A stretch of 64,000 nucleotides of DNA. Origin: an uncultured archaeon (GTDB lineage: Archaea; Iainarchaeota; Iainarchaeia; Iainarchaeales; VGJJ01). Positions 993-62,246 of the stretch are shown piece by piece. A program made the translations under genes and the position numbers. Below the pieces are notes generated by a model. That model saw nothing but the letters and a program-made list of their open reading frames with translations. It did no database searches and was not told where the DNA came from. The stretch spans positions 3,308-67,307 of the forward strand of contig CAYHNT010000001.1 of the NCBI GenBank assembly GCA_964358055.1. Direction: 5' to 3'. How positions within the stretch are numbered: the first letter of the stretch is position 1; every line of letters starts with the position of its first letter.

Positions 993-2198
993 TTAAAATC
1001 CCGCGTTCTCCAATCGTTCAAATGCTTCTTTTATTTTTTCTTTTTTAGTGGCATAGGAGATGCGTACGAATCCTTCTCCTTTTTTTCCGAATTCGTTTCC
1101 GGGGACCATCAGCACTTTGGCTTTTTTGAGCATGGAGTGAACGAATTCCGAGGATTTTTGCTTGTTTGTGATGCGTGGAAACACATAGAATGCTCCTTCC
1201 GGATTCACTTCCACGTGTAAAGAGGGAGTGTTTTTCAATAAGTTGAGTGTGAGCTTTCTTCTTTCATCATACGATCGGCGCATTTTCTCGGTGTAGGATT
1301 TTTTCATGCGCAATGCCGCGAGTGCGCCGTATTGGTTCGCGGTGCTGGCAGCCAAGCTGGTGAATATGTGTATTTTGCTTATTTCGCGTACGAGTTCAGG
1401 ATGCCCTGCCACGTATCCTAGTCGAAAGCCTGGCATGGCGTAGGATTTGGAAAACGAATGGCAGGTGAGTACGTGGTCGTGCATGCCGTTTAACGATGCC
1501 ATGCTTACGTGTTTGCTTTTGCCGAATACGAACTTTTCATATGCCTCATCCGAGAACACAATCAGGTCGTGCTCCACGGCAATATCCGCAATGTCTTCGA
1601 GCACTTTCTTGGACAATACGGTTCCTGTAGGATTAGAGGGCGTGTTAAGAATAATGGCCTTGGTTCGATTGGTTATTTTTTCTTCCAAGTCTTCCGGGTG
1701 GATTTGAAACCCGTCCTTGTCGGTGAGGTTGTAAGGTAAGGGTTCTCCCGTCACTAAATCCACCATGGGTTCATAGGCTAAAAATGAAGGATTGGGCACC
1801 AGCACCTCTTCTCCTGCATCCACGATGCTCAATAATCCCATCAATAGGGCTTCCGTGCTTCCTGCAGTCACACACACTTGATGATCAGGGTCATCGAGTG
1901 TAATGTGGTTTTCTTTCTTGAGTTTTCGTGCGATTTCCTCACGTAATTCTTTCAAACCGGGGATTGCGGAGTAGTGTGTTTTTCCATTCTTTAGTGCGTT
2001 GATCGTCGCGTTGACAATGGGTGCGGGCGCATCAAAATCAGGTTCTCCGGGTCCCAACGAAACCACGTCGTGGTCTTCTTTGGCCACGCGCATGATCTCT
2101 TCAAATTCGGAATCGGGCAGTTCCTCTACGCGCTTGGAAAGGATGTGCTGCCATCGCGGCTTTCGGTTGCTTCTTTTTCCGTGGAGGAAGTGGTGCAT
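993..2198 (-). CDS. Class I/II PLP-dependent aminotransferase (aspartate aminotransferase-like)
   Basis: 401 aa. SFSKSYAMPGFRLGY PLP-lysine motif. GPGEPDF near the N-terminus, typical of AAT fold type I. Confidence 0.85.
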   Translation of the reverse strand: MHHFLHGKRSNRKPRWQHILSKRVEELPDSEFEEIMRVAKEDHDVVSLGPGEPDFDAPAPIVNATINALKNGKTHYSAIPGLKELREEIARKLKKENHITLDDPDHQVCVTAGSTEALLMGLLSIVDAGEEVLVPNPSFLAYEPMVDLVTGEPLPYNLTDKDGFQIHPEDLEEKITNRTKAIILNTPSNPTGTVLSKKVLEDIADIAVEHDLIVFSDEAYEKFVFGKSKHVSMASLNGMHDHVLTCHSFSKSYAMPGFRLGYVAGHPELVREISKIHIFTSLAASTANQYGALAALRMKKSYTEKMRRSYDERRKLTLNLLKNTPSLHVEVNPEGAFYVFPRITNKQKSSEFVHSMLKKAKVLMVPGNEFGKKGEGFVRISYATKKEKIKEAFERLENAGF

Positions 2199-5733: not shown

Positions 5734-6495
5734 ATGGCATCCAAGCACACCTCCCATTCCATGTGCCCAAAATGTGGCACGAAAGAGGGGGCATTCGTGG
5801 GAGTATTTTGTCAATCCTGTTTCCTGAAGGACCATCCTAAACTGATTGAGATTCCATCCAAGCTTGAAATAGAAAAATGCAATCGCTGCGGGAAAGTCCG
5901 TGTGCAAGGACAATGGAAAGAATGGGATGATGATTCGGTTCACCGTTGGATTAAGGAAAAAGTAAAAGCAAAAGGAATGCACGACGTTTCCATTCAACTC
6001 GAAATGACCCCGCATCCAAAGGAAGAGAAGGAGTTTCGTGTGAAAATAGCAGTGGATGGAGAAATCGAGCATTCGAAAGTGGATTTGGTTTTGCATTCCA
6101 TCTTATTTATTCGCAATACTATTTGCAATGATGACATGCTCATTTCGAGCGATTATTATGAGGCCATTATTCAAGTTCGTTTCCCCGATCGTACCGTTGA
6201 ACGCGTACGTTCGTTGCAAGATGAATTAGTCAAGGCACTTGCTCCTATTCAGAAGCTCGATTCGAAAGCAGTTGTAGTGAATTGGGCCTTGCAAACCAAT
6301 GGTTTTGATGCCTGGATTGTTTCCAGTAAGGCTGCTAAGGCTGCGGCTGTTTATCTTTCACGCCAACACAAGGGAACGATTTCGGTTTCAAACAAACAAA
6401 TCGGATTGGATACGCACACGAGTAAAACGAAGTATCGTTTTACGTATTTGGTTCGTTTGCCTGAACAAAAAGTAGAAAAAACCGAAAGCGATTAG
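5734..6495 (+). CDS. Nmd3-like ribosomal large-subunit biogenesis protein (N-terminal Cys4 zinc clusters)
   Basis: 253 aa. CPKCG, CQSCF and CNRCG cysteine pairs at the N-terminus resemble the archaeal Nmd3 N-domain. Confidence 0.5.
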   Translation: MASKHTSHSMCPKCGTKEGAFVGVFCQSCFLKDHPKLIEIPSKLEIEKCNRCGKVRVQGQWKEWDDDSVHRWIKEKVKAKGMHDVSIQLEMTPHPKEEKEFRVKIAVDGEIEHSKVDLVLHSILFIRNTICNDDMLISSDYYEAIIQVRFPDRTVERVRSLQDELVKALAPIQKLDSKAVVVNWALQTNGFDAWIVSSKAAKAAAVYLSRQHKGTISVSNKQIGLDTHTSKTKYRFTYLVRLPEQKVEKTESD

Positions 6496-10324: not shown

Positions 10325-11830
10325 TTAGTCCGCTAAATCGTCGAATGTTTTTCTTCCGGTTGAAAATTTCCAGAACACTTCGTCTAACGCATCTACTGGG
10401 ATGCGTTTCTGTTGCATCGAGTTTCGCTCGCGTAAGGTTACGGTTTGCTCTTTGATGGTGTCATAGTCAATCGTAATTCCATACGGTATTCCTATCTCGT
10501 CCCCACGTGCATAGCGTTTTCCAATGCTTCCACTTTCATCGTAATACGCATTCACGGACATGGATTGGAGTCGTTGGAAAATGCGATACGCTTCCTCGGA
10601 CATTCCATCTTTTTTCATCAAGGGATAAATTCCTACTTTGTAGGGTGCAATGCGATGAGGTAAATCCAGGAAAACGCGCTCTTCTTCTCCGCGTGTTTCT
10701 TTACGATACGATGCATCAAGTGCGGCGATGAATGTTCTGTCGAGTCCCATGGATATTTCGAAAATATGGGGATAGTATTTGGAAATGTCTCCTTCTTCTC
10801 GTACTTGTAAATCCGCTTTGGATGTTTCGGCGTGCGTTTTCAAATCGTGATCCGTGCGATAATTGCATGCGGCGAGTTCCAACCAGTTTCCATCTAAATT
10901 TACTTCAAAGTCCCATGTTTCATGGGAATAGAAAGCCCGTGCTTCTTTTTCGAGTTCGCGGAAGCGCATTTTTCCAAGAGGAAACGACAACATTTCTCCT
11001 AATTGTTGCGTGCGGGCTAAAAAGTAGGCAATGGTTTTTCCTGAAACAATGCTTTGATCTACAGCTTCTTGACACGTCAGCGAATGGATTTCTTTATCGG
11101 AGAGTAAATACAAATTGATTTTGTACTCCTTCACATCGTCCCAGTTTTCCACATGATCAATTTTATCCGGATTGAAGAATATTTCCACATCCATTTGTTC
11201 GAGTTCGCGTTTACGTATCAATCCTTGTCTCGGAGCAATCTCATTTCGGAATGCCTTTCCTACTTGTCCAATTCCTAATGGCAGTTTTACTTTTCCTTGC
11301 TTCCATATTCGGATGAAATCCAAGAAGATGCTTTGACACGCTTCGGGTCGTAAGTACGCAGGATTGGCTTTCATCGCTCCCACATTCGATTGGAGCATCA
11401 TGTTGAACCTGGTTGTGCGTCCGAGGGGCATTTTGTCTTTGGCGCACACAATGTTGTATTCTTTTACTTTTTCGTCGTAGAATTCAAGCGCTGCTCCTTC
11501 GGGTACTTCATGTCCTAATTTTTCTTCCACCAATTTATCCACACGATAAGGTGTCTTGCACGTCTCACATACTACAAGTGGATCGTTGAAGTTTTCTAAG
11601 TGTCCGGAGGCGCGAAACACGCTCTCGGGGAGGATGATGCTTCCGTCTATTTCAATCATCCCTTCACGCTCAACAAGGAATCGTCTCCATAGTTGTACGA
11701 TACGGTGCTTGATGCGCATGCCTTCAGGTCCGTATTCGTAAAAACCCGCGAGTGCATCCGAGTATATTTCGGCGCTCGGAAAAAAGAGTCCTCTGCGTTG
11801 GGCAAGGTTGGTGATTTCGGGTAATGGCAT
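10325..11830 (-). CDS. glyS: Glycyl-tRNA synthetase (archaeal/eukaryotic alpha2 type)
   Basis: RRGLFFPSAEIY..GFYEYGP N-terminal signature. Class II motif 2 GKAFRNEIAPRQGLIRKREL. C-terminal anticodon-binding domain. Confidence 0.85.
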   Translation of the reverse strand: MPLPEITNLAQRRGLFFPSAEIYSDALAGFYEYGPEGMRIKHRIVQLWRRFLVEREGMIEIDGSIILPESVFRASGHLENFNDPLVVCETCKTPYRVDKLVEEKLGHEVPEGAALEFYDEKVKEYNIVCAKDKMPLGRTTRFNMMLQSNVGAMKANPAYLRPEACQSIFLDFIRIWKQGKVKLPLGIGQVGKAFRNEIAPRQGLIRKRELEQMDVEIFFNPDKIDHVENWDDVKEYKINLYLLSDKEIHSLTCQEAVDQSIVSGKTIAYFLARTQQLGEMLSFPLGKMRFRELEKEARAFYSHETWDFEVNLDGNWLELAACNYRTDHDLKTHAETSKADLQVREEGDISKYYPHIFEISMGLDRTFIAALDASYRKETRGEEERVFLDLPHRIAPYKVGIYPLMKKDGMSEEAYRIFQRLQSMSVNAYYDESGSIGKRYARGDEIGIPYGITIDYDTIKEQTVTLRERNSMQQKRIPVDALDEVFWKFSTGRKTFDDLAD

Positions 11831-11884: not shown

Positions 11885-12754
11885 ATGTCCCTCGATAAGC
11901 CTTTTTCGGGAGGTAGCCAGATTCATGCGCTGCGAAAGCGACTCATGGAGCAGACCAAATGGAGCATCTCCTCGGAGCTCTCCTCTAAAGACGCCCACGT
12001 GATTCGTGCGGTGCAAACCAGTAAGAATTTGGAGGCCATTTACAATCTTTTATTCGAACAGGCACTCGAATGGTACGCGTTGCATTTCCCTGAGATTCGA
12101 CAACTCGTACGCGACCCCCAAAACGTGTTAGGATTAATCGTCCGCGGCGGTTCGAGAGGAAAAATAACCACGGATGTGCTGAAACAATTCTACACCGACG
12201 AGTATTCCATCACGCGCGTATTAGAAGCCGCCCAAAAAAGTGCGGGTGGAGAAATGGAGGAGCGCGCATTGAAGGCCATTCAGGGGGTAGCTCAAACCGC
12301 GTTGGATATCAAGAAGGAACAACTCAAACTAACGGATTACGTGGTGCGCCAGATGATGGAGATTGCACCCAATTTTTCCGAGCTTGCAACTCCTACGATT
12401 GCCGCGCAATTGTTGAGCAAAGCGGGGAGCTTGAAACACTTAGCTGAGTTGCCCGGTTCCACCATTCAAGTGATGGGTGCCGAGGAAGCGTTATTTTCTC
12501 ATTTGAAAACGAAGACAAAGCCTCCAAAGCATGGATATTTGTTCAATCATCCGTTAGTCAAACCATTGCCCAAGCACGCAAGGGGAAGAATGGCACGCAC
12601 ACTTGCGGGAAAATTAGCTATTTGTATTCGCGTGGACATGTTTGGTAAGAAACGGGTGGTGGAAGAATATTTGCCCAAGCTTCAAGCGCTTTCAAAGAAG
12701 CTCGCTAAAACAAATCCACGTGTACGTAAACCCTTTGTTCCTCGGAGAAAGTAG
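11885..12754 (+). CDS. nop5: Nop5 (Nop56/58) C/D box snoRNP protein, short form
   Basis: NOP domain with ALFSHLKTKTKPPKHGYLFNHPLV and LAGKLAICIRVD. Sits immediately upstream of fibrillarin. Confidence 0.8.
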   Translation: MSLDKPFSGGSQIHALRKRLMEQTKWSISSELSSKDAHVIRAVQTSKNLEAIYNLLFEQALEWYALHFPEIRQLVRDPQNVLGLIVRGGSRGKITTDVLKQFYTDEYSITRVLEAAQKSAGGEMEERALKAIQGVAQTALDIKKEQLKLTDYVVRQMMEIAPNFSELATPTIAAQLLSKAGSLKHLAELPGSTIQVMGAEEALFSHLKTKTKPPKHGYLFNHPLVKPLPKHARGRMARTLAGKLAICIRVDMFGKKRVVEEYLPKLQALSKKLAKTNPRVRKPFVPRRK

Positions 12755-14055: not shown

Positions 14056-14133
14056 GGGCCCGTAGCTCAGCCTGGACTTCAGAGCACTTCCGTCCTAAGG
14101 AAGGGGTCGTGGGTTCGAATCCCACCGGGCTCG
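14056..14133 (+). tRNA. tRNA-Arg (anticodon CCU), with an unusually long 13-nt D-loop
   Basis: Acceptor GGGCCCG/CGGGCTC, D-stem GCTC/GAGC, anticodon stem CTTCC/GGAAG with loop GTCCTAA, T-arm GTGGG-TTCGAAT-CCCAC. Confidence 0.6.
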
Positions 14134-51826: not shown

Positions 51827-52765
51827 ATGAGCATTGTAAAGTATGCCGGTCTCCGTCTCTCTTCCCCTGCCGTATTAGCCCCCATGTCAGGTGTTTCGAC
51901 GTTGCCCTTTCGTTTACTCTGTAAAGAGCTGGGCGCCGGTTTAACGTACACCGAATTTGCCTCGGCCATTGCCATTGCGCGAAACCTCGCAAATAGGGCG
52001 AGCAATAATAAGGTGTTTGCGCGCGTGGAAACCGTGAAAGAGGAACATCCTGTCGGGGTGCAGTTGTTTGCTCCCAATGAAAAAGACTTGGGAACGGCCA
52101 TCGAATACGTCGAGAAAGATTTTGATTTGGTGGACATTAATTTCGGCTGCCCTTCCCCTAAAATTACAGGAGGGGGGTGCGGGGCGTTCTTGTTGAGAGA
52201 ACCGGAGAAACTTATTTCACTCATTAAAGCCGCCGTGTCCGTTTCGAGCAAGCCCGTGACGTGCAAGTTACGCATGGGCTGGGACAAGCCCGTATTGCAT
52301 GAGTTTGTGGAAAAAATCCAGGACGCAGGAGTGCAGGGAATCGCAGTGCATGCACGCACAGCATTGCAAGGATATAGCGGTAAGGCCGATTGGGAATACA
52401 TCAAAAAAATAAAATCACTCATCAGCATTCCTGTAATTGGAAATGGAGACATTGGAAATGCAAACGATCTGTTTGATAAAATTCAAAATAATTACTGCGA
52501 TGTGGTCATGGTGGGAAGAGCCGCGTGGAATAATCCAAGTATTTTTTCCGAAGTAGCCGGGTTAAACGTTCCCTCACGAAATGAAGTATTGCAAAAATAT
52601 TTTTCATTGTGCCAAAAACATCCTGTTACGGATTTAATCGATGTCAAGGCACAAGTTTCAGGAATTTTTTCCGGAATGCCCAATGCGAAGAAAGTACGGG
52701 TTGAAATGATGCAGGCCCAGAGTTTGGAAAACGTTCAGGCGATTGCATTGGGAAATGTGATATAG
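51827..52765 (+). CDS. dus: tRNA-dihydrouridine synthase (Dus family, FMN-dependent)
   Basis: VLAPMSGVSTLPFR, INFGCPSPKI, and the GxxAxxxG and KxR regions typical of Dus. Confidence 0.8.
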   Translation: MSIVKYAGLRLSSPAVLAPMSGVSTLPFRLLCKELGAGLTYTEFASAIAIARNLANRASNNKVFARVETVKEEHPVGVQLFAPNEKDLGTAIEYVEKDFDLVDINFGCPSPKITGGGCGAFLLREPEKLISLIKAAVSVSSKPVTCKLRMGWDKPVLHEFVEKIQDAGVQGIAVHARTALQGYSGKADWEYIKKIKSLISIPVIGNGDIGNANDLFDKIQNNYCDVVMVGRAAWNNPSIFSEVAGLNVPSRNEVLQKYFSLCQKHPVTDLIDVKAQVSGIFSGMPNAKKVRVEMMQAQSLENVQAIALGNVI

Positions 52766-57898: not shown

Positions 57899-60118
57899 TC
57901 ATTTGTGTTTCTTCTCCTCTCTACTGGATGAAAGTTTGGTTCCTCTCAATAAAAGAGCATTGCTCACCACGCTCACACTGCTCAGGGCCATGGCTCCTCC
58001 TGCTAGAATGGGGGAGAGCAGCCATCCCGTAAATGGATAGAGAATTCCCGCCGCGATGGGGATGCCTAATACATTGTAGATGAGTGCCCAGAACATTCCT
58101 TGTTTTATTTTGTCCATGGTAGCCTTTCCGAGTTTGAGGGCATTCACCACATCGTAGGGGTCGCCTTTCATGAGGACGATGTCCCCGGCTTCGATGGCAA
58201 TGTCCGTTCCTGAACCCATGGCGATGCCCAAGTCCGCCTGTGCGAGTGCGGGCGCGTCATTCACGCCGTCTCCCACAAACGCGACCTTTTTTCCTTGGGC
58301 TTGGAGTTTTTTTACATACGCTGCTTTTTCTTCCGGCAGCACGTGAGCGAAAACGTTGGGGATGCCGGCTTGTTTAGCAATGGCTTTGGCCGTGCGTTCA
58401 TTGTCTCCGGTAATCATCCAGGTTTCTTTTTTCCACTCATGCAACGTACGAATGGTGTGCATGGCGCTCTCTTTGAGGACATCGGCCACACCCAACACGG
58501 CGAGTGCTTTTTTTTGGCTGGATAATACAACGACTGTTTTTCCTTGATTCTCCCACTCCTCAATCATGTCCTCGTATGCGGTAAGGGAAATTTTTTGTTC
58601 TTCCATCCAGCGAATGTTTCCGAGTTTGTATTCGACTCCATTGTTTTTTCCCTGGACTCCCTTTCCAAAGGTTGCTTTGAATGATTCGATTTTCACAGGG
58701 GTTATTTTTTGGTGTGAAACGTACTGCGTAATGGCCTGTGCGAGAGGATGCTCTGATTTTTCTTCGAGCCCGCGCAAGAGGCCTAGTATTTCCTTCTCGC
58801 TCACGCGGGGGGCAAATTCAACATTAGTGACTTGGGGTTTTCCTTTCGTGATGGTTCCCGTTTTGTCAAAAATAATGGTGTCAATCGCATGCATGGTCTC
58901 CAATGCCTCGGCTCCTTTAATGAGGATGCCATTCTCCGCCCCCACGCCTGTTCCCACCATTATTGCGGTAGGGGTGGCGAGTCCAAGTGCGCACGGGCAC
59001 GCAATCACGAGCACGGAAACACTTGTAACGAGTGCAAACGCGAGCGTGGATTGTCCCAATGTCACCCATCCCCCAAAAGTTAAGATGGCGATGACGATAA
59101 CAATGGGCACGAACACGGCGGAGATTTGGTCAGCGAATCGTTGGATGTCCGCTTTTCCGCCCTGCGCTTCCTCCACCAATTGCACAATGCGTGCCAGCAC
59201 GGTATTTTTTCCAATTCCTCGAGCCTTGAATGTGATGTTCCCGTTTAGGTTGATGGTTCCCCCAACCACGGTGTCTCCTTTTTTCTTTTCAGCGGGAATG
59301 CTTTCTCCCGTAATCATGCTTTCATCAATGCTCGTTTGTCCCTCTACAATGATGCCATCCACCGGAATGCGCTCCCCTGGACGTACGACAATGAGGTCGT
59401 TCAATTTGACGGAGGCCACAGGCACCTCCACTTCTTTTTTTCCCCGTAGTACGCGTGCCATCTTGGAGCTTAAGTCCATGAGCTTGCGTATCGCGTCCCC
59501 CGTTTTTCGCTTGGCGATGGCTTCCAAATATTTTCCAAAAATAACCAGTGTAATGAGAATGGCTCCCACTTCAAAGTATTGTTCCTCCACCAAACCAAAC
59601 AAGGAGGCCACGCTATAGAAATAGGCCGCGCTGGTTCCTAGTGCGATGAGCGTGTCCATGCTGGCAGTCTTGTTAAGCAGTGCCGTCCATGCCCCCAAGT
59701 AAAAATGCCTTCCCACGTAGAATTGGACAGGAGTTGCGAGCACAAACAATACCCATTCACGGTAAGGAAAATCCATGAATATCATTCCGATGAGTAGGGC
59801 AGGAAAACTGAAGATGGCTCCGAGAATGAGTTGTTGTTTTAATTGTCTAATTTCGTGCTCGCGTAGTTGTTGTTCGCGCTGCGGAGAAACATCCAGGTTT
59901 GCCGTGTATCCTCTTTTTTTTACGGCCTCCATTAAATCGTTTTCATTGGCGAGTTTTTCATCAAACTCCACGTGTGCTTTTTGGGTCCCATAATTCACGT
60001 TGGCGGTTTTGACTCCGGGGATTTTCTCCAATGACTTCGTGATGAGCACGGCGCAGCTGGCGCAGTGCATTCCATCAATGGCCATTTCAATTTTTTTCAT
60101 GTTAAAACAATCCCCCAC
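57899..60118 (-). CDS. copA: Copper-translocating P1B-type ATPase (CopA-like)
   Basis: N-terminal [14 protein letters not shown] in TM6, [15 protein letters not shown]. 739 aa. Confidence 0.9.
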
Positions 60119-61026
60119 GCGATGCTGGACTTGGGTCCAAATAAAATCAGTGCAAGCACGGCCAAGAAGAGGAGAGTATTCATCAGGGCGAATGGGATGA
60201 AATCCACGTGTTTTTTTTCCTCTTGAATAAGACCCACCTCCTTTACGATGAAATAGCTCATTCCCCCTAAGATAAGGATGCAGGCCCCAAATAGGATATA
60301 GAGGAATAGAATCAGGTTATCGGACAGCATCATCACGCTCAACATGGCCCCCATGGTCCCGGCCATGAGTCCGGCCATCATTCCTTCTAACACGCCCATG
60401 ATGCCGGTCTTGCGCACCGCATAGGCACTGGCGCTCATTCCAATGGTCATTCCTGTAAGGGAGCCCATGAACATGCCATTGGTGGCTCCTATCAGGGCGC
60501 CGCTCATGAATCCGGATATCATCCCCACAATCATTCCTGTCATCATCCCATTCGTACAGTTGAAATGCTGTCGCACGTTTCGGACGTGCAATAATGCACC
60601 TGCATTAACGGCTATTCCGAGGGGAAGCAAAATCAGAATGGGGGACAACTTGTAAAAAATTTCCATTTGGCTGAACCAAAAAAAATACGCTCCTCCGAGC
60701 ACGAGAAGGAGGAGGGTGAAGATGCCCATTGTTTGCGTGAACAGTTCGTGTTCGGCCTCGTAGCCGGGCTGGTTTCCCAGGATGCGTTTCATGACATAGG
60801 AGAAGTGCGGCTGGTTATTTTTTTCTTCATTCAAGTAGTTGTATTCGCGAAGCCTATTTTTGATTTGAGGCAAATCCTCTGCGTAGCAAGAAAGGGTCAA
60901 TGTTGTGGCGTCACTGGAGATGGATTCGATTTTGGCCTGGCTGTATCTGCGAAGTATTCTTCCGATGACCTTCTCGCATGCGTCGCATGAAACATTACGA
61001 ATGGGCAATTGGGTGGTGTGGGTCAT
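60097..61026 (-). CDS. HMA-domain membrane protein with Met/Gly-rich TMs (putative copper-handling transporter/CopD-like)
   Basis: N-terminal CDAC HMA-like region. C-terminal TMs rich in GM repeats ([17 protein letters not shown]...). Overlaps the copA start by 22 nt. Confidence 0.45.
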
Positions 61027-61047: not shown

Positions 61048-61245
61048 TTATGCCATCGTGTATCCTTCTTTTTCGATTGCTTTTTTGATGGCGGGTATTT
61101 CGTTATCGCTTTTAACATCGACTACTATTTCTCCTTTTTGGTGGTTGGCTGAAATCACTTTTCTTCCGTCCTCCTCGATGGCCTCTTTCAATAATATTTC
61201 ACAGCTCGTGCAGTGCATGCCCTTAATTTTGAGTGTTTTTTTCAT
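61048..61245 (-). CDS. copZ: Copper chaperone CopZ (HMA domain)
   Basis: 65 aa. KIKGMHCTSCE is the GMxCxxC motif. Confidence 0.8.
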   Translation of the reverse strand: MKKTLKIKGMHCTSCEILLKEAIEEDGRKVISANHQKGEIVVDVKSDNEIPAIKKAIEKEGYTMA

Positions 61246-61652
61246 TCAATCACCTCGATGATTCCATTGAACATTTTCATGGAGCAATGATAGGGGAATC
61301 TCCCTGTGCGTGTGGGAGTAAACTCGATGAGCGCCTCGCCTTGAGAAGGGGCGAGCTTTCGTATCTTGAATTCGGGGAAAATCACTTCCCTGCCGCACCC
61401 CGCATACTCGTCGGAGGAATAATGGATACGCACGGGAATGTCTTTCTTAACTTTCAAGTATGTTGGATTGTATACTCCTGCCTGCGTGGCCTTGAGATAG
61501 AGGTCTTGTTTTCCATCCACCATAGGGGGAAATGAAGTGTTGGGTGGAATGGTAATGGCTTTTCCCGTGGGGTTGGCCGATGCCCCAGTAATGAAAATAA
61601 ACCCAACGAGGGTCAGTCCGGCCATAAGTCCAACAATCAAAAGGTTATTCAT
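61242..61652 (-). CDS. Secreted cupredoxin-like domain protein (putative copper-binding)
   Basis: Start at Met26 (MNNLLIVGLMAG signal/TM). C-terminal FPYHCSMKMFNGIIEV is cupredoxin-like with Cys/His/Met ligands. 4-nt overlap with copZ. Confidence 0.4.
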   Translation of the reverse strand: MNNLLIVGLMAGLTLVGFIFITGASANPTGKAITIPPNTSFPPMVDGKQDLYLKATQAGVYNPTYLKVKKDIPVRIHYSSDEYAGCGREVIFPEFKIRKLAPSQGEALIEFTPTRTGRFPYHCSMKMFNGIIEVIE

Positions 61653-61662
61653 CGTATCACCA

Positions 61663-61727
61663 TATGTTTCATGCGTTGAAACAATATATATAAATGGATG
61701 AAACAGTGTTTCAGTTATATGAAACAT
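61663..61727. promoter_or_regulatory. Array of TGAAACA/TGTTTCA half-sites (two inverted repeats plus a single half-site) and TATA box in the cop divergent promoter
   Basis: TGTTTCA-tgcgt-TGAAACA (61665-61683), TATATATAAAT (61685-61696), TGAAACA-g-TGTTTCA (61699-61713), TGAAACA (61720-61726). Confidence 0.6.
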
Positions 61728-62246
61728 CCCTTATTTCGCCCCATTTCCATGCGCAAGCGGATGGGTCTCTGGCTGGTGCTGTCGGTTCTTTTTCTGGGGG
61801 TATTGACCCTTACCACTATTTCCTATTTTGCTCCCTCCTCCAACGGGTTCATTGGTTTTTTTGTCCAGTATCATTTTGAGGCCATGGTGTTGATTGGCCT
61901 GTTGGGCATTGGGATTGGCATGGCGAGCTCTTACTTGCTTTCAAAGGAATTGCAGGCCTCTCATGAGACGGTTCAAAGCCAGTCGGCCCTACTATTGTCT
62001 TTTTTGACCCCCTTGGAGAAAGAATGCGTATTATTCTTAGTCCAAAACAACGGGGAAACGTTTCAATCCGATTTGTCCAGACTTTCCGGGATGACTCGGT
62101 TGAAGGCGCATCGGATTGTGAGTAAATTACATGAGCGAAAAATTATCCATATCTCCTCTCACGGCAAGGCCAACAAAATCGTGTTGAGTGAGGAGTGGAA
62201 AAATGGCTTGATGGAGGGCCGCATAAAACGCGCAGACAGTGTATGA
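61698..62246 (+). CDS. Membrane-anchored winged-helix transcriptional regulator (candidate copper-responsive regulator)
   Basis: N-terminal TM ([18 protein letters not shown]), second TM, C-terminal wHTH ([31 protein letters not shown]). Start is ambiguous (61698, 61719 or 61749). Confidence 0.5.

Follow-up and report, generated by a model that had tools for sequence, protein, structure and literature searches.

Which protein reads the short repeats that lie between a copper-handling (cop) operon and the divergent gene of a small membrane protein with a winged helix-turn-helix (wHTH) domain? The question is raised by a 64,000-nucleotide stretch of DNA from an uncultured archaeon (contig CAYHNT010000001.1; the whole stretch is called the window below), in which five copies of the 7-mer TGAAACA or its complement TGTTTCA surround a TATA-like element. 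The answer that we favor, with a probability of roughly 70% and on the strength of sequence comparison, is that the array is the operator of the divergent, membrane-tethered regulator family and controls both divergent units. The motif is conserved, its layout is conserved, and both are strictly tied to the regulator family; we strongly infer that the regulator is the protein that binds the array.

Half-sites around a single TATA element

All five half-sites were confirmed as exact 7-mers both by reading the sequence and by pattern search, so the array that an initial interpretation of the DNA letters (the sequence-only reading) had described around the TATA box is real. TGTTTCA occupies 61665-61671 (half-site 1) and 61707-61713 (half-site 4), and TGAAACA occupies 61677-61683 (half-site 2), 61699-61705 on the plus strand (half-site 3) and 61720-61726 (half-site 5). 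The AT-rich TATA element, ATATATATAAAT, spans 61684-61695, with the minus strand reading TTTATATA at 61694-61687. Half-sites 1 and 2 form a perfect palindrome, TGTTTCA-tgcgt-TGAAACA (candidate operator site A, 61665-61683, spacer N5), half-sites 4 and 5 form another, TGTTTCA-gttata-TGAAACA (candidate operator site B, 61707-61726, spacer N6), and half-sites 2 and 3, which begin at 61677 and 61699, make up a direct pair, TGAAACA-N15-TGAAACA, that flanks the TATA element with 22 bp from start to start.

The two forms of the 7-mer occur 29 times in the whole window, against 18.7 +/- 4.1 in shuffled sequences, and 24 of these copies are scattered singles outside the cluster. The five exact copies in 61665-61726 compare with about 0.02 expected by chance (Poisson P for at least five copies in 62 bp = 5.6e-11, or about 4e-6 once the scanning of the whole window is allowed for), and the largest cluster in 300 first-order Markov simulations held at most three. 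The palindrome TGTTTCA-N4-7-TGAAACA has two occurrences, both in the array, against 0.01 expected; no further one exists elsewhere in the 64 kb, and relaxed matches to the direct pair elsewhere in the window are at chance level (19 vs 14.8 expected). The presence of other regulon members within the window was rejected on these two grounds.

Conservation of the array was examined in 25 loci that were retrieved by protein similarity alone, with one genome per species and regulator identities from 81% to 33%. In every one of the 25, the regulator gene is divergent from the cupredoxin gene and the intergenic DNA contains the motif cluster, and the genes for CopZ, a membrane protein with an HMA domain and CopA are retained wherever the contig is long enough. 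Exact half-sites number 87 in 6.07 kb of intergenic DNA (14.3/kb) compared with 61 in 256 kb elsewhere (0.24/kb; Poisson P about 1e-119), and none of the loci has a second half-site cluster. A comparison of half-site density across the genome, for which the sequence-only reading had called, was thus made within the window plus about 300 kb of related loci, and over that span no second cluster appeared.

The spacing of the half-sites is also constrained. In 26 related intergenic regions, inverted TGTTTCA/TGAAACA pairs occur 23 times and only with spacers of N5 (11 instances) or N6 (12 instances), and the direct pair TGAAACA-N15-TGAAACA occurs 19 times. An alignment of nine Iainarchaeia regions contains the invariant blocks TGAAAC-ATATATA, AACA-TGTTTCA and ATGAAAC amid variable sequence. 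Of the two inverted repeats named in the sequence-only reading, TGTTTCA-N5-TGAAACA is therefore kept in relatives, whereas the gap of the everted pair TGAAACA-N1-TGTTTCA varies among them (1, 2, 11, 21, 23), and this pair was set aside as incidental rather than a conserved unit. Phylogenetic footprinting across two DPANN lineages shows the repeats to behave as a constrained cis element, of which the predicted functional units are the TGTTTCA-N5/6-TGAAACA palindromes and the direct pair TGAAACA-N15-TGAAACA that flanks the TATA element.

Only one TATA-like element is present between the divergent start codons ATG 61652 and ATG 61719, which are 66 bp apart. Its designation as a TATA box, already made in the sequence-only reading, is appropriate because the host is a DPANN archaeon (Iainarchaeia/Diapherotrites), and its position resembles that of the boxes of other window genes: it ends 24 nt before ATG 61719, and the TTTAAA-type boxes of other genes end 22-23 nt before their ATG. 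Homologues of the regulator are found in metagenome-assembled genomes of Candidatus Iainarchaeum/Diapherotrites and of Micrarchaeota. A bacterial promoter was considered and rejected, as a sigma-70-type promoter scan of the intergenic region gave no match and the organism is archaeal. It should be noted that most genes in the window lack a Shine-Dalgarno motif and are preceded by a (C)TTTAAA(A/G) box whose end is 22-23 nt from the ATG (e.g. upstream of the open reading frames (ORFs) 993-2198(-), 10325-11830(-), 11885-12754(+) and 51827-52765(+)), which indicates that transcripts in this Iainarchaeia genome would mostly be leaderless; the cop operon, with a conserved GGTGA, is an exception to this pattern.

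The start codon of the regulator probably lies within the array. Homologues begin with MKQ (ATG AAA CAR), ten residues before a conserved MRKR, and their starts align to M8 of the 182-aa ORF, that is, to ATG 61719, where ATGAAACA encodes Met-Lys-His/Gln and overlaps half-site 5. The public call for this protein (P0001) has 165 aa and starts at ATG 61749. Because of the homologue alignment and the distance to the TATA element, ATG 61719 is preferred, so that the true protein would have 175 aa and the public call would be ten residues short. The suggestion that the fifth half-site overlaps the start of the regulator gene can thus be narrowed to the most likely true start, and constraint on the DNA may account for the conservation of MKQ, since ATGAAACA is an operator half-site. 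The regulator mRNA would be leaderless, as expected from the 24-nt distance between TATA element and ATG, with a predicted start at about 61716-61719.

On the other side, ATG 61652 is 34 nt from the same TATA element, and a Shine-Dalgarno-like GGTGAT precedes the cupredoxin gene at 61661-61656 (-); the corresponding 'tcacc' is kept in eight of nine Iainarchaeia loci. The 34-nt distance together with the conserved GGTGA suggests a cop transcript with a leader of about 10 nt and a predicted start near 61660-61665. In some Micrarchaeota loci (e.g. L012, about 5930-5995), the start codons are only 59 bp apart and both transcripts are seemingly leaderless. Because no other TATA-like element lies between the start codons, the arrangement implies that one TATA region would serve both directions; a bidirectional promoter as compact as this would be unusual for an archaeon. 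The TATA-like element is directly bordered by half-sites on either side, and the positions of the half-sites relative to the transcription starts are predicted ones: site A separates the TATA element from the start predicted for cop transcription, its right arm, directly next to the TATA element, occupies the position of the transcription factor B (TFB) recognition element (BRE) of the regulator promoter, and site B overlies the predicted leaderless transcription start of the regulator together with its start codon, ATG 61719.

With this geometry, the repeats might be thought to be a basal promoter element, such as a lineage-specific BRE or initiator, or to form RNA hairpins that control translation. 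The GAAACA just upstream of the TATA element is indeed purine-rich and BRE-like, the two palindromes fold as RNA (z = -3.2 and -2.6), and one of the hairpins includes the AUG. Nevertheless, no other promoter in the window has TGAAACA beside its TATA-like box, and the core motif is near-exclusive to the regulator-cop module in the metagenome collection described below, which led to the rejection of a general BRE or strong-promoter element. The fold scores, for their part, are at the level of any palindrome; the palindrome arms never vary, so that there are no compensatory changes; the best-conserved unit is the direct repeat, which is unable to pair; and with the leaderless start that is predicted, half of hairpin B would not be transcribed. 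RNA structure was therefore rejected as well, and both versions of this explanation are regarded as extremely improbable.

The motif in the regulator family and in cop operons

As the regulator and the cop genes are neighbors, the motif could belong to either. To address this with DNA alone, the pattern TGAAACAWTATATATN7TGAAACA was run against 241 million metagenome records and matched 39 contigs. A regulator homologue lies directly downstream in the expected orientation in 33 of them, and two have cop genes alone, at the contig edge, so that 35 of the 39 represent the regulator-cop module; the window itself is identical to L027 (contig Hain-H41), which comes from Hainich groundwater. One further contig (L055, 7059-7804) encodes a paralogous wHTH protein with two transmembrane (TM) helices, 27% identical and divergent from an operon for a MacB/FtsX-type ATP-binding cassette (ABC) transporter. 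The remaining three comprise two copies of the same (TA)n low-complexity sequence and one short, unexplained contig.

Paralogs with other neighbors were informative. In the ABC-linked subfamily (L067-L070), synteny is kept and the promoter region contains TGAAACT-ATATATATgcttttt-TGAAACT with the same 22-bp spacing, along with extra GTTTCA copies and a ATGAAACAA start. A second regulator in L075 (9646-10300), which has a Cys-rich loop and adjoins an unrelated gene, is preceded by TGAAACC-ATATATAGCGAATCG-TGAAACC, and a paralog in L071 has GAAACT copies around a TATA-like element. The recognition helix of the paralog in L076 (4156-4815) is more divergent, and a palindrome of another kind, ctgTGAAACtaGTTTCAcag, lies beside a TATTTAAA box there. 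Overall, paralogs use GAAAC-type half-sites with A, T or C at position 7. Their loops differ as well (a 65-aa Cys loop or C-x(n)-CPHE), and they adjoin MacB/FtsX ABC transporters, cop operons that lack a cupredoxin gene, and unknown genes, among others.

The reverse case is provided by cop clusters of Methanosphaerula palustris and a relative, which have the same HMA membrane protein and a different HTH regulator: no such array was found there, and the M. palustris locus (L073, CP001338) contains zero copies of the 7-mer in 11 kb. In these two loci, the cop cluster is preceded by a protein of 261-282 aa with HTH_24/MarR-like domains (L073 3605-4453, L074 3677-4462), an apparent N-terminal TM helix and a Cys-rich segment, and a conserved element, tctcatcacaattgtga, lies upstream of copZ. 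This protein may represent another type of membrane-anchored cop regulator.

Judged from these comparisons, the layout of half-site, TATA element and half-site travels with the regulator family and not with the cop genes. The motif is assigned to the regulator because paralogs with non-cop neighbors keep this layout, because cop operons with another regulator lack the motif, and because an invariant half-site goes together with an invariant recognition helix. The motif therefore co-occurs with the regulator across orthologues and paralogs, independently of the presumed target genes. It could be argued that a different soluble factor, encoded elsewhere, binds TGAAACA and that the membrane wHTH protein has another role, because regulator and cop genes are always found together in cop-type loci and are inseparable there. 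Yet family members with non-cop neighbors have the layout too, cop clusters without a family member do not have it, and recognition helix and motif are invariant together, so that such a factor is highly unlikely.

A distant member of the family, P0028 (locus L065, 277-3155), has a Cys-containing loop and the recognition helix MTRLQAWR and is encoded inside a cluster of genes for ArsR, thioredoxin, an ArsP permease and CDF efflux. No TGAAACA array was found at the P0028 locus, which tells of a metal context and nothing of the operator. This gene context suggests that the whole regulator family is linked to the handling of metals or metalloids.

The regulator and its possible mode of action

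The regulator gene (61719-62246, plus strand) encodes 175 aa from ATG 61719. The protein is predicted to begin with a basic stretch in the cytoplasm and to cross the membrane with TM1; a loop of about 15 aa leads to TM2, which runs on without a break into a stalk helix, and a winged helix of MarR/ArsR type and a further helix make up the C-terminal part. An AlphaFold2 (AF2) model built with the family alignment has a mean predicted local distance difference test (pLDDT) value of 86.6 and, in the numbering of the 165-aa form, places TM1 at 2-27, followed by a short loop helix, a long helix at 42-84 that combines TM2 and the cytoplasmic stalk, the winged helix at 88-146 and the C-terminal helix. 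The modeled winged helix is flanked by N- and C-terminal helices, as in the MarR fold, and the top Foldseek matches are MarR/ArsR-family structures including CadC and AntR (probability 1.00, E about 6e-4). The description of the regulator as a two-TM winged-helix protein is thus supported by model and structural matches. Because the N-terminus is basic and the loop is free of Lys and Arg, we infer an N-in, C-in topology with a cytoplasmic winged helix.

Sequence profiles were less decisive. Pfam DUF7343 (PF24034) scores 24.9 bits (E = 1.8e-5) against a gathering threshold of 27.6; a precomputed match to it exists in the homologues P0022 and P0026-P0028, and the ABC-linked paralog scores 42.5 bits. 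Pfam MarR_2 reaches 18.3 bits, below its cut-off of 27, and a search of the PDB with the family profile gave marginal matches to RuvA and LsrR and a MarR protein at E = 0.75. Searching 1.84 billion representative proteins with the profile recovered 454 clusters at E <= 1e-10, so that the family comprises at least 454 clusters at 50% identity; most of these have 155-190 aa and match over the full length. Many members keep H-x3-M, and others have Cys-x(n)-Cys-Pro-His-Glu or CxC in the loop.

Conservation was determined from 48 unique relatives and is given in the numbering of the 182-aa ORF. H59 is present in 48/48 and M63 in 47/48, the Met being missing in the ABC-linked paralog alone; the two residues, at the outer end of TM2, are separated by one turn of the helix. 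G70xxxG74, also in TM2, is invariant, and Q123, the recognition helix M132-T-R-L-K-A-H-R139 and G156-K157 of the wing vary little or not at all. The protein has one Cys, C110, which is cytoplasmic and present in just 19% of the relatives, for which reason it was rejected as a Cu(I) ligand.

From these features, the following mechanism can be proposed. Regulator dimers, probably held together by the GxxxG of TM2 and the MarR-like helices, would use the invariant recognition helix MTRLKAHR to read the TGTTTCA-N5/6-TGAAACA palindromes and the TGAAACA pair that flanks the TATA element. The window would offer three dimer positions, with starts near 61665, 61687 and 61707; in the middle one, the partner half, N5 upstream of half-site 3, would sit on the TATA element, where TATATAA matches TGTTTCA at 4/7 positions. 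With 20-22 bp between positions, the dimers would lie on the same face of the DNA, which would suit proteins that approach from the membrane. Bound dimers would cover the cop start region, the TATA/BRE region and the leaderless start of the regulator itself, and occupancy would shut the TATA-binding protein (TBP), TFB and RNA polymerase out of both promoters, resulting in repression and autoregulation. Copper (or silver) would bind to the invariant His-x3-Met pair at the outer end of TM2, possibly as two His and two Met across the dimer, and the signal would pass along the continuous TM2-stalk helix to the winged helix and lead to the release of DNA, which would induce the genes for cupredoxin, CopZ, the HMA membrane protein and CopA. 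The locus may be kept at the membrane by co-translational insertion of the products, because the target operons encode membrane or secreted proteins. The sequence-only reading had likewise taken the array as the cis element of a metal-responsive, autoregulated switch; the structural parts of that reading all hold, the conserved cis element and its tie to the regulator family support it, and DNA binding, autoregulation, the direction of regulation and a copper response are proposed from gene context.

Several observations weigh against this interpretation or parts of it. The leftmost half-site (61665) is degenerate in five of the nine aligned Iainarchaeia sequences, although the right arm of site A is invariant, so that site A may be less important than the core. 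Position 7 of the half-site (A/T/C) tracks variants of the recognition helix poorly. Regulator and cop genes co-occur in all cop-type loci, and the assignment is consequently carried by the contrasts with paralogs and Methanosphaerula, which comprise few loci. The transcription starts are derived from TATA-to-ATG distances. Two further points, the very short extracytoplasmic loop, by which sensing could be indirect, and the sites upstream of the cop TATA element, which could equally serve activation as in Pyrococcus furiosus CopR (PMC7830388), lead to alternatives for how the array would act.

Simple repression is considered reasonably probable. The regulator might also be a copper-dependent activator or act in a dual mode, the far-side sites serving as upstream activating sites for each promoter. 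Seen from the cop promoter, half-sites 3-5 are indeed upstream of the TATA element, and in P. furiosus, CopR bound between divergent promoters both represses copR and has a stimulating effect on copA (PMC7830388). However, in the window the half-sites abut the TATA element on both sides and the palindromes cover both predicted start regions. Archaeal repressors that act by blocking TBP/TFB or RNA polymerase typically have their sites next to the TATA element or over the starts. Activation therefore appears unlikely.

Direct sensing of copper at the His/Met pair is put forward tentatively, with slightly less than even odds. Alternatively, the regulator could bind the array but read a partner membrane protein (the HMA membrane protein, CopA or CopZ) instead of copper itself. 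Two precedents for such a relay are Bce-type intramembrane-sensing kinases, which read their ABC transporter, and CopZ, which delivers Cu(I) to CopY. The outside loop has just about 15 residues, the HMA membrane protein is strictly syntenic, and one paralog subfamily is paired with an ABC transporter of the MacB/FtsX type, the transporter class of the Bce-like flux sensors. Against this, H59 is invariant and M63 is lost in the non-cop paralog alone, the Cys-x(n)-Cys-Pro-His-Glu in the loop of other subfamilies resembles direct metal ligation, and a CopZ-type transfer of Cu(I) to a thiolate site is unlikely because C110, the single cytoplasmic Cys, is not conserved. Sensing through a partner is thus a doubtful alternative to direct sensing.

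How does the proposed regulator compare with known systems? The archaeal CopR proteins (P. furiosus PF0739, Saccharolobus CopR and Halobacterium VNG1179C) combine an Lrp/AsnC-type HTH with TRASH. They share with the window a copper-related regulator encoded divergently from a copper ATPase gene and sites between close divergent promoters (PMC7830388), and in the window and the 25 loci the regulator is likewise divergent from the copper ATPase operon with the motif between the promoters; CopR autoregulates, which is proposed here. CopR is cytosolic, has TRASH as its metal domain, forms octamers that wrap about 150 bp and recognizes TTNNCAWWWTGNNAA upstream of the BRE (PMC7830388). Unlike CopR, the window regulator has two TM helices, a MarR-like wHTH and TGAAACA half-sites that abut the TATA element, and Pfam detected neither an Lrp/AsnC-type HTH nor TRASH in it.

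In ToxR and CadC, a membrane anchor and a cytoplasmic winged helix are joined in one polypeptide and the promoter is brought to the membrane (PMC5430869, PMC7496328). The window regulator likewise joins an anchor and a predicted cytoplasmic winged helix. ToxR/CadC proteins occur in bacteria and are usually activators; their OmpR-type wHTH is N-terminal and is joined through a single TM helix to a large sensor domain in the periplasm, whereas the window regulator has two TM helices followed by the wHTH, a minimal outside loop and archaeal transcription machinery, and Pfam found no Trans_reg_C in it. Membrane-bound transcription factors as such are already known in archaea: ArnR and ArnR1 of Sulfolobus acidocaldarius are membrane-bound one-component factors that bind promoter boxes; in them, an HTH at the N-terminus is followed by a HAMP-like domain, a sensor domain in the cytoplasm and, at the C-terminus, two TM helices (PMC6396743). 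They control archaellum and pili genes, unrelated to metals, and the domain order of the window regulator is the reverse of theirs, without HAMP.

In structure, the cytoplasmic part is most similar to MarR and ArsR/SmtB repressors such as pI258 CadC, AntR, SlyA and MepR (Foldseek E 6e-4 to 3e-3), which are dimeric repressors of palindromic operators, several of them metal-sensing. These are soluble and 12-24% identical, whereas the N-terminal dimerization helix of the window regulator extends into a TM helix. BcrR of Enterococcus faecalis, a one-component sensor embedded in the membrane, binds to inverted repeats and regulates the ABC transporter operon next to it, in which respects it resembles the ABC-linked paralogs of the window regulator; it is bacterial, with an N-terminal XRE-type HTH, four TM helices and bacitracin as ligand. 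CopY is a cytosolic member of the BlaI/MecI family with a Cys-rich Zn/Cu site that is loaded by CopZ, and it recognizes TACAnnTGTA. In Enterococcus hirae it is the winged-helix repressor of a cop operon with CopZ, and its operator contains inverted repeats (PMC10141476). In the reviews of copper sensors within the literature searched, one-component regulators are all cytosolic (CueR, CopY, CsoR, ArsR-type, ComR and archaeal CopR), and copper outside the cytoplasm is sensed by two-component kinases instead. The literature searched contained no mention of DUF7343, of this regulator family or of the module and described neither a membrane-tethered copper-sensing transcription factor nor a cop regulator of DPANN archaea, in agreement with the view of the sequence-only reading that a membrane-tethered wHTH copper regulator is unusual.

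Gene neighborhood and significance for DPANN archaea

ORFs and Pfam matches agree with the gene content first proposed for the two divergent units, namely cupredoxin, CopZ, HMA membrane protein and CopA on the minus strand and the two-TM wHTH protein on the plus strand. The first cop gene (61242-61652, -) encodes a cupredoxin-like protein of 136 aa that is membrane-anchored or secreted (Pfam Cupredoxin_1, E = 4e-8). It is followed by a CopZ-like HMA metallochaperone of 65 aa (61048-61245, -; Pfam HMA, E = 2.3e-9; NCBIfam CopZ models at E about 2e-7, under their cut-offs). The third gene (60097-61026, -) encodes a membrane protein of 309 aa with an N-terminal HMA-like CxxC and a Met/Gly-rich multi-TM region. 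No relative of this protein was found in Pfam, NCBIfam or the PDB; it has 218 homologues, some with a precomputed HMA match, and is encoded between CopZ and CopA in DPANN archaea and Methanosphaerula palustris. It may represent an uncharacterized family of copper-handling membrane proteins. The last gene (57899-60100, -) encodes CopA, a P1B-type copper ATPase (Pfam E1-E2_ATPase 6.5e-60, Hydrolase 1.3e-37, HMA 2e-15), with a likely start at ATG 60100 that overlaps the stop codon of the upstream gene (ATGA); alignments of CopA homologues start at residues 5-9 of the longer ORF. The operon thus combines a P-type ATPase that has an N-terminal HMA domain with a CopZ-like chaperone, as is characteristic of cop operons, and its metal specificity is predicted from these families.

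Downstream of the regulator, the stop codon TGA overlaps the ATG of pyrE (orotate phosphoribosyltransferase) as ATGA at window positions 62243-62246, and a GIY-YIG gene overlaps the end of pyrE. These two housekeeping genes may therefore share a transcript with the regulator, though in this genome alone, since relatives do not keep the arrangement. In the related locus L075, genes for a multicopper oxidase and a DsbA-like thioredoxin (1-841 and 1855-2643) adjoin the module, forming a larger copper-handling neighborhood. An Rfam scan of the window returned three tRNAs only; one of them (14056-14133, +; 54.8 bits) was not reported by ARAGORN and may be an atypical archaeal tRNA.

Since DPANN archaea are uncultured, their gene regulation has gone virtually unstudied. 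We suggest, though with the odds somewhat against it, that DPANN archaea possess a large, uncharacterized family of minimal one-component membrane sensors, in which TM2 is continuous with the dimerization helix, metal ligands are placed at the outer end of TM2 or in the loop, and GAAAC half-sites 22 bp apart are arranged around one bidirectional TATA element. If this were true, the branch linked to cop genes would provide the first transcription factor that senses copper while tethered to the membrane and could detect it outside the cell, and the array would belong to the first cis-regulatory code defined for DPANN archaea. Regulator family, operator grammar and target operons can be read directly from sequence, and the resulting prediction is clean and can be tested with little material, a domain of about 90 aa and 62 bp of DNA. 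The locus would also offer a natural case of one TATA region that serves two divergent, largely leaderless units with start codons 59-66 bp apart, which would be useful for studying the orientation of the pre-initiation complex, and the invariant 7-mer with its 22-bp spacing could help to annotate regulons in DPANN metagenome-assembled genomes. A membrane sensor that consists of one polypeptide and acts directly on a promoter would be a new solution, and one that would suit very small cells.

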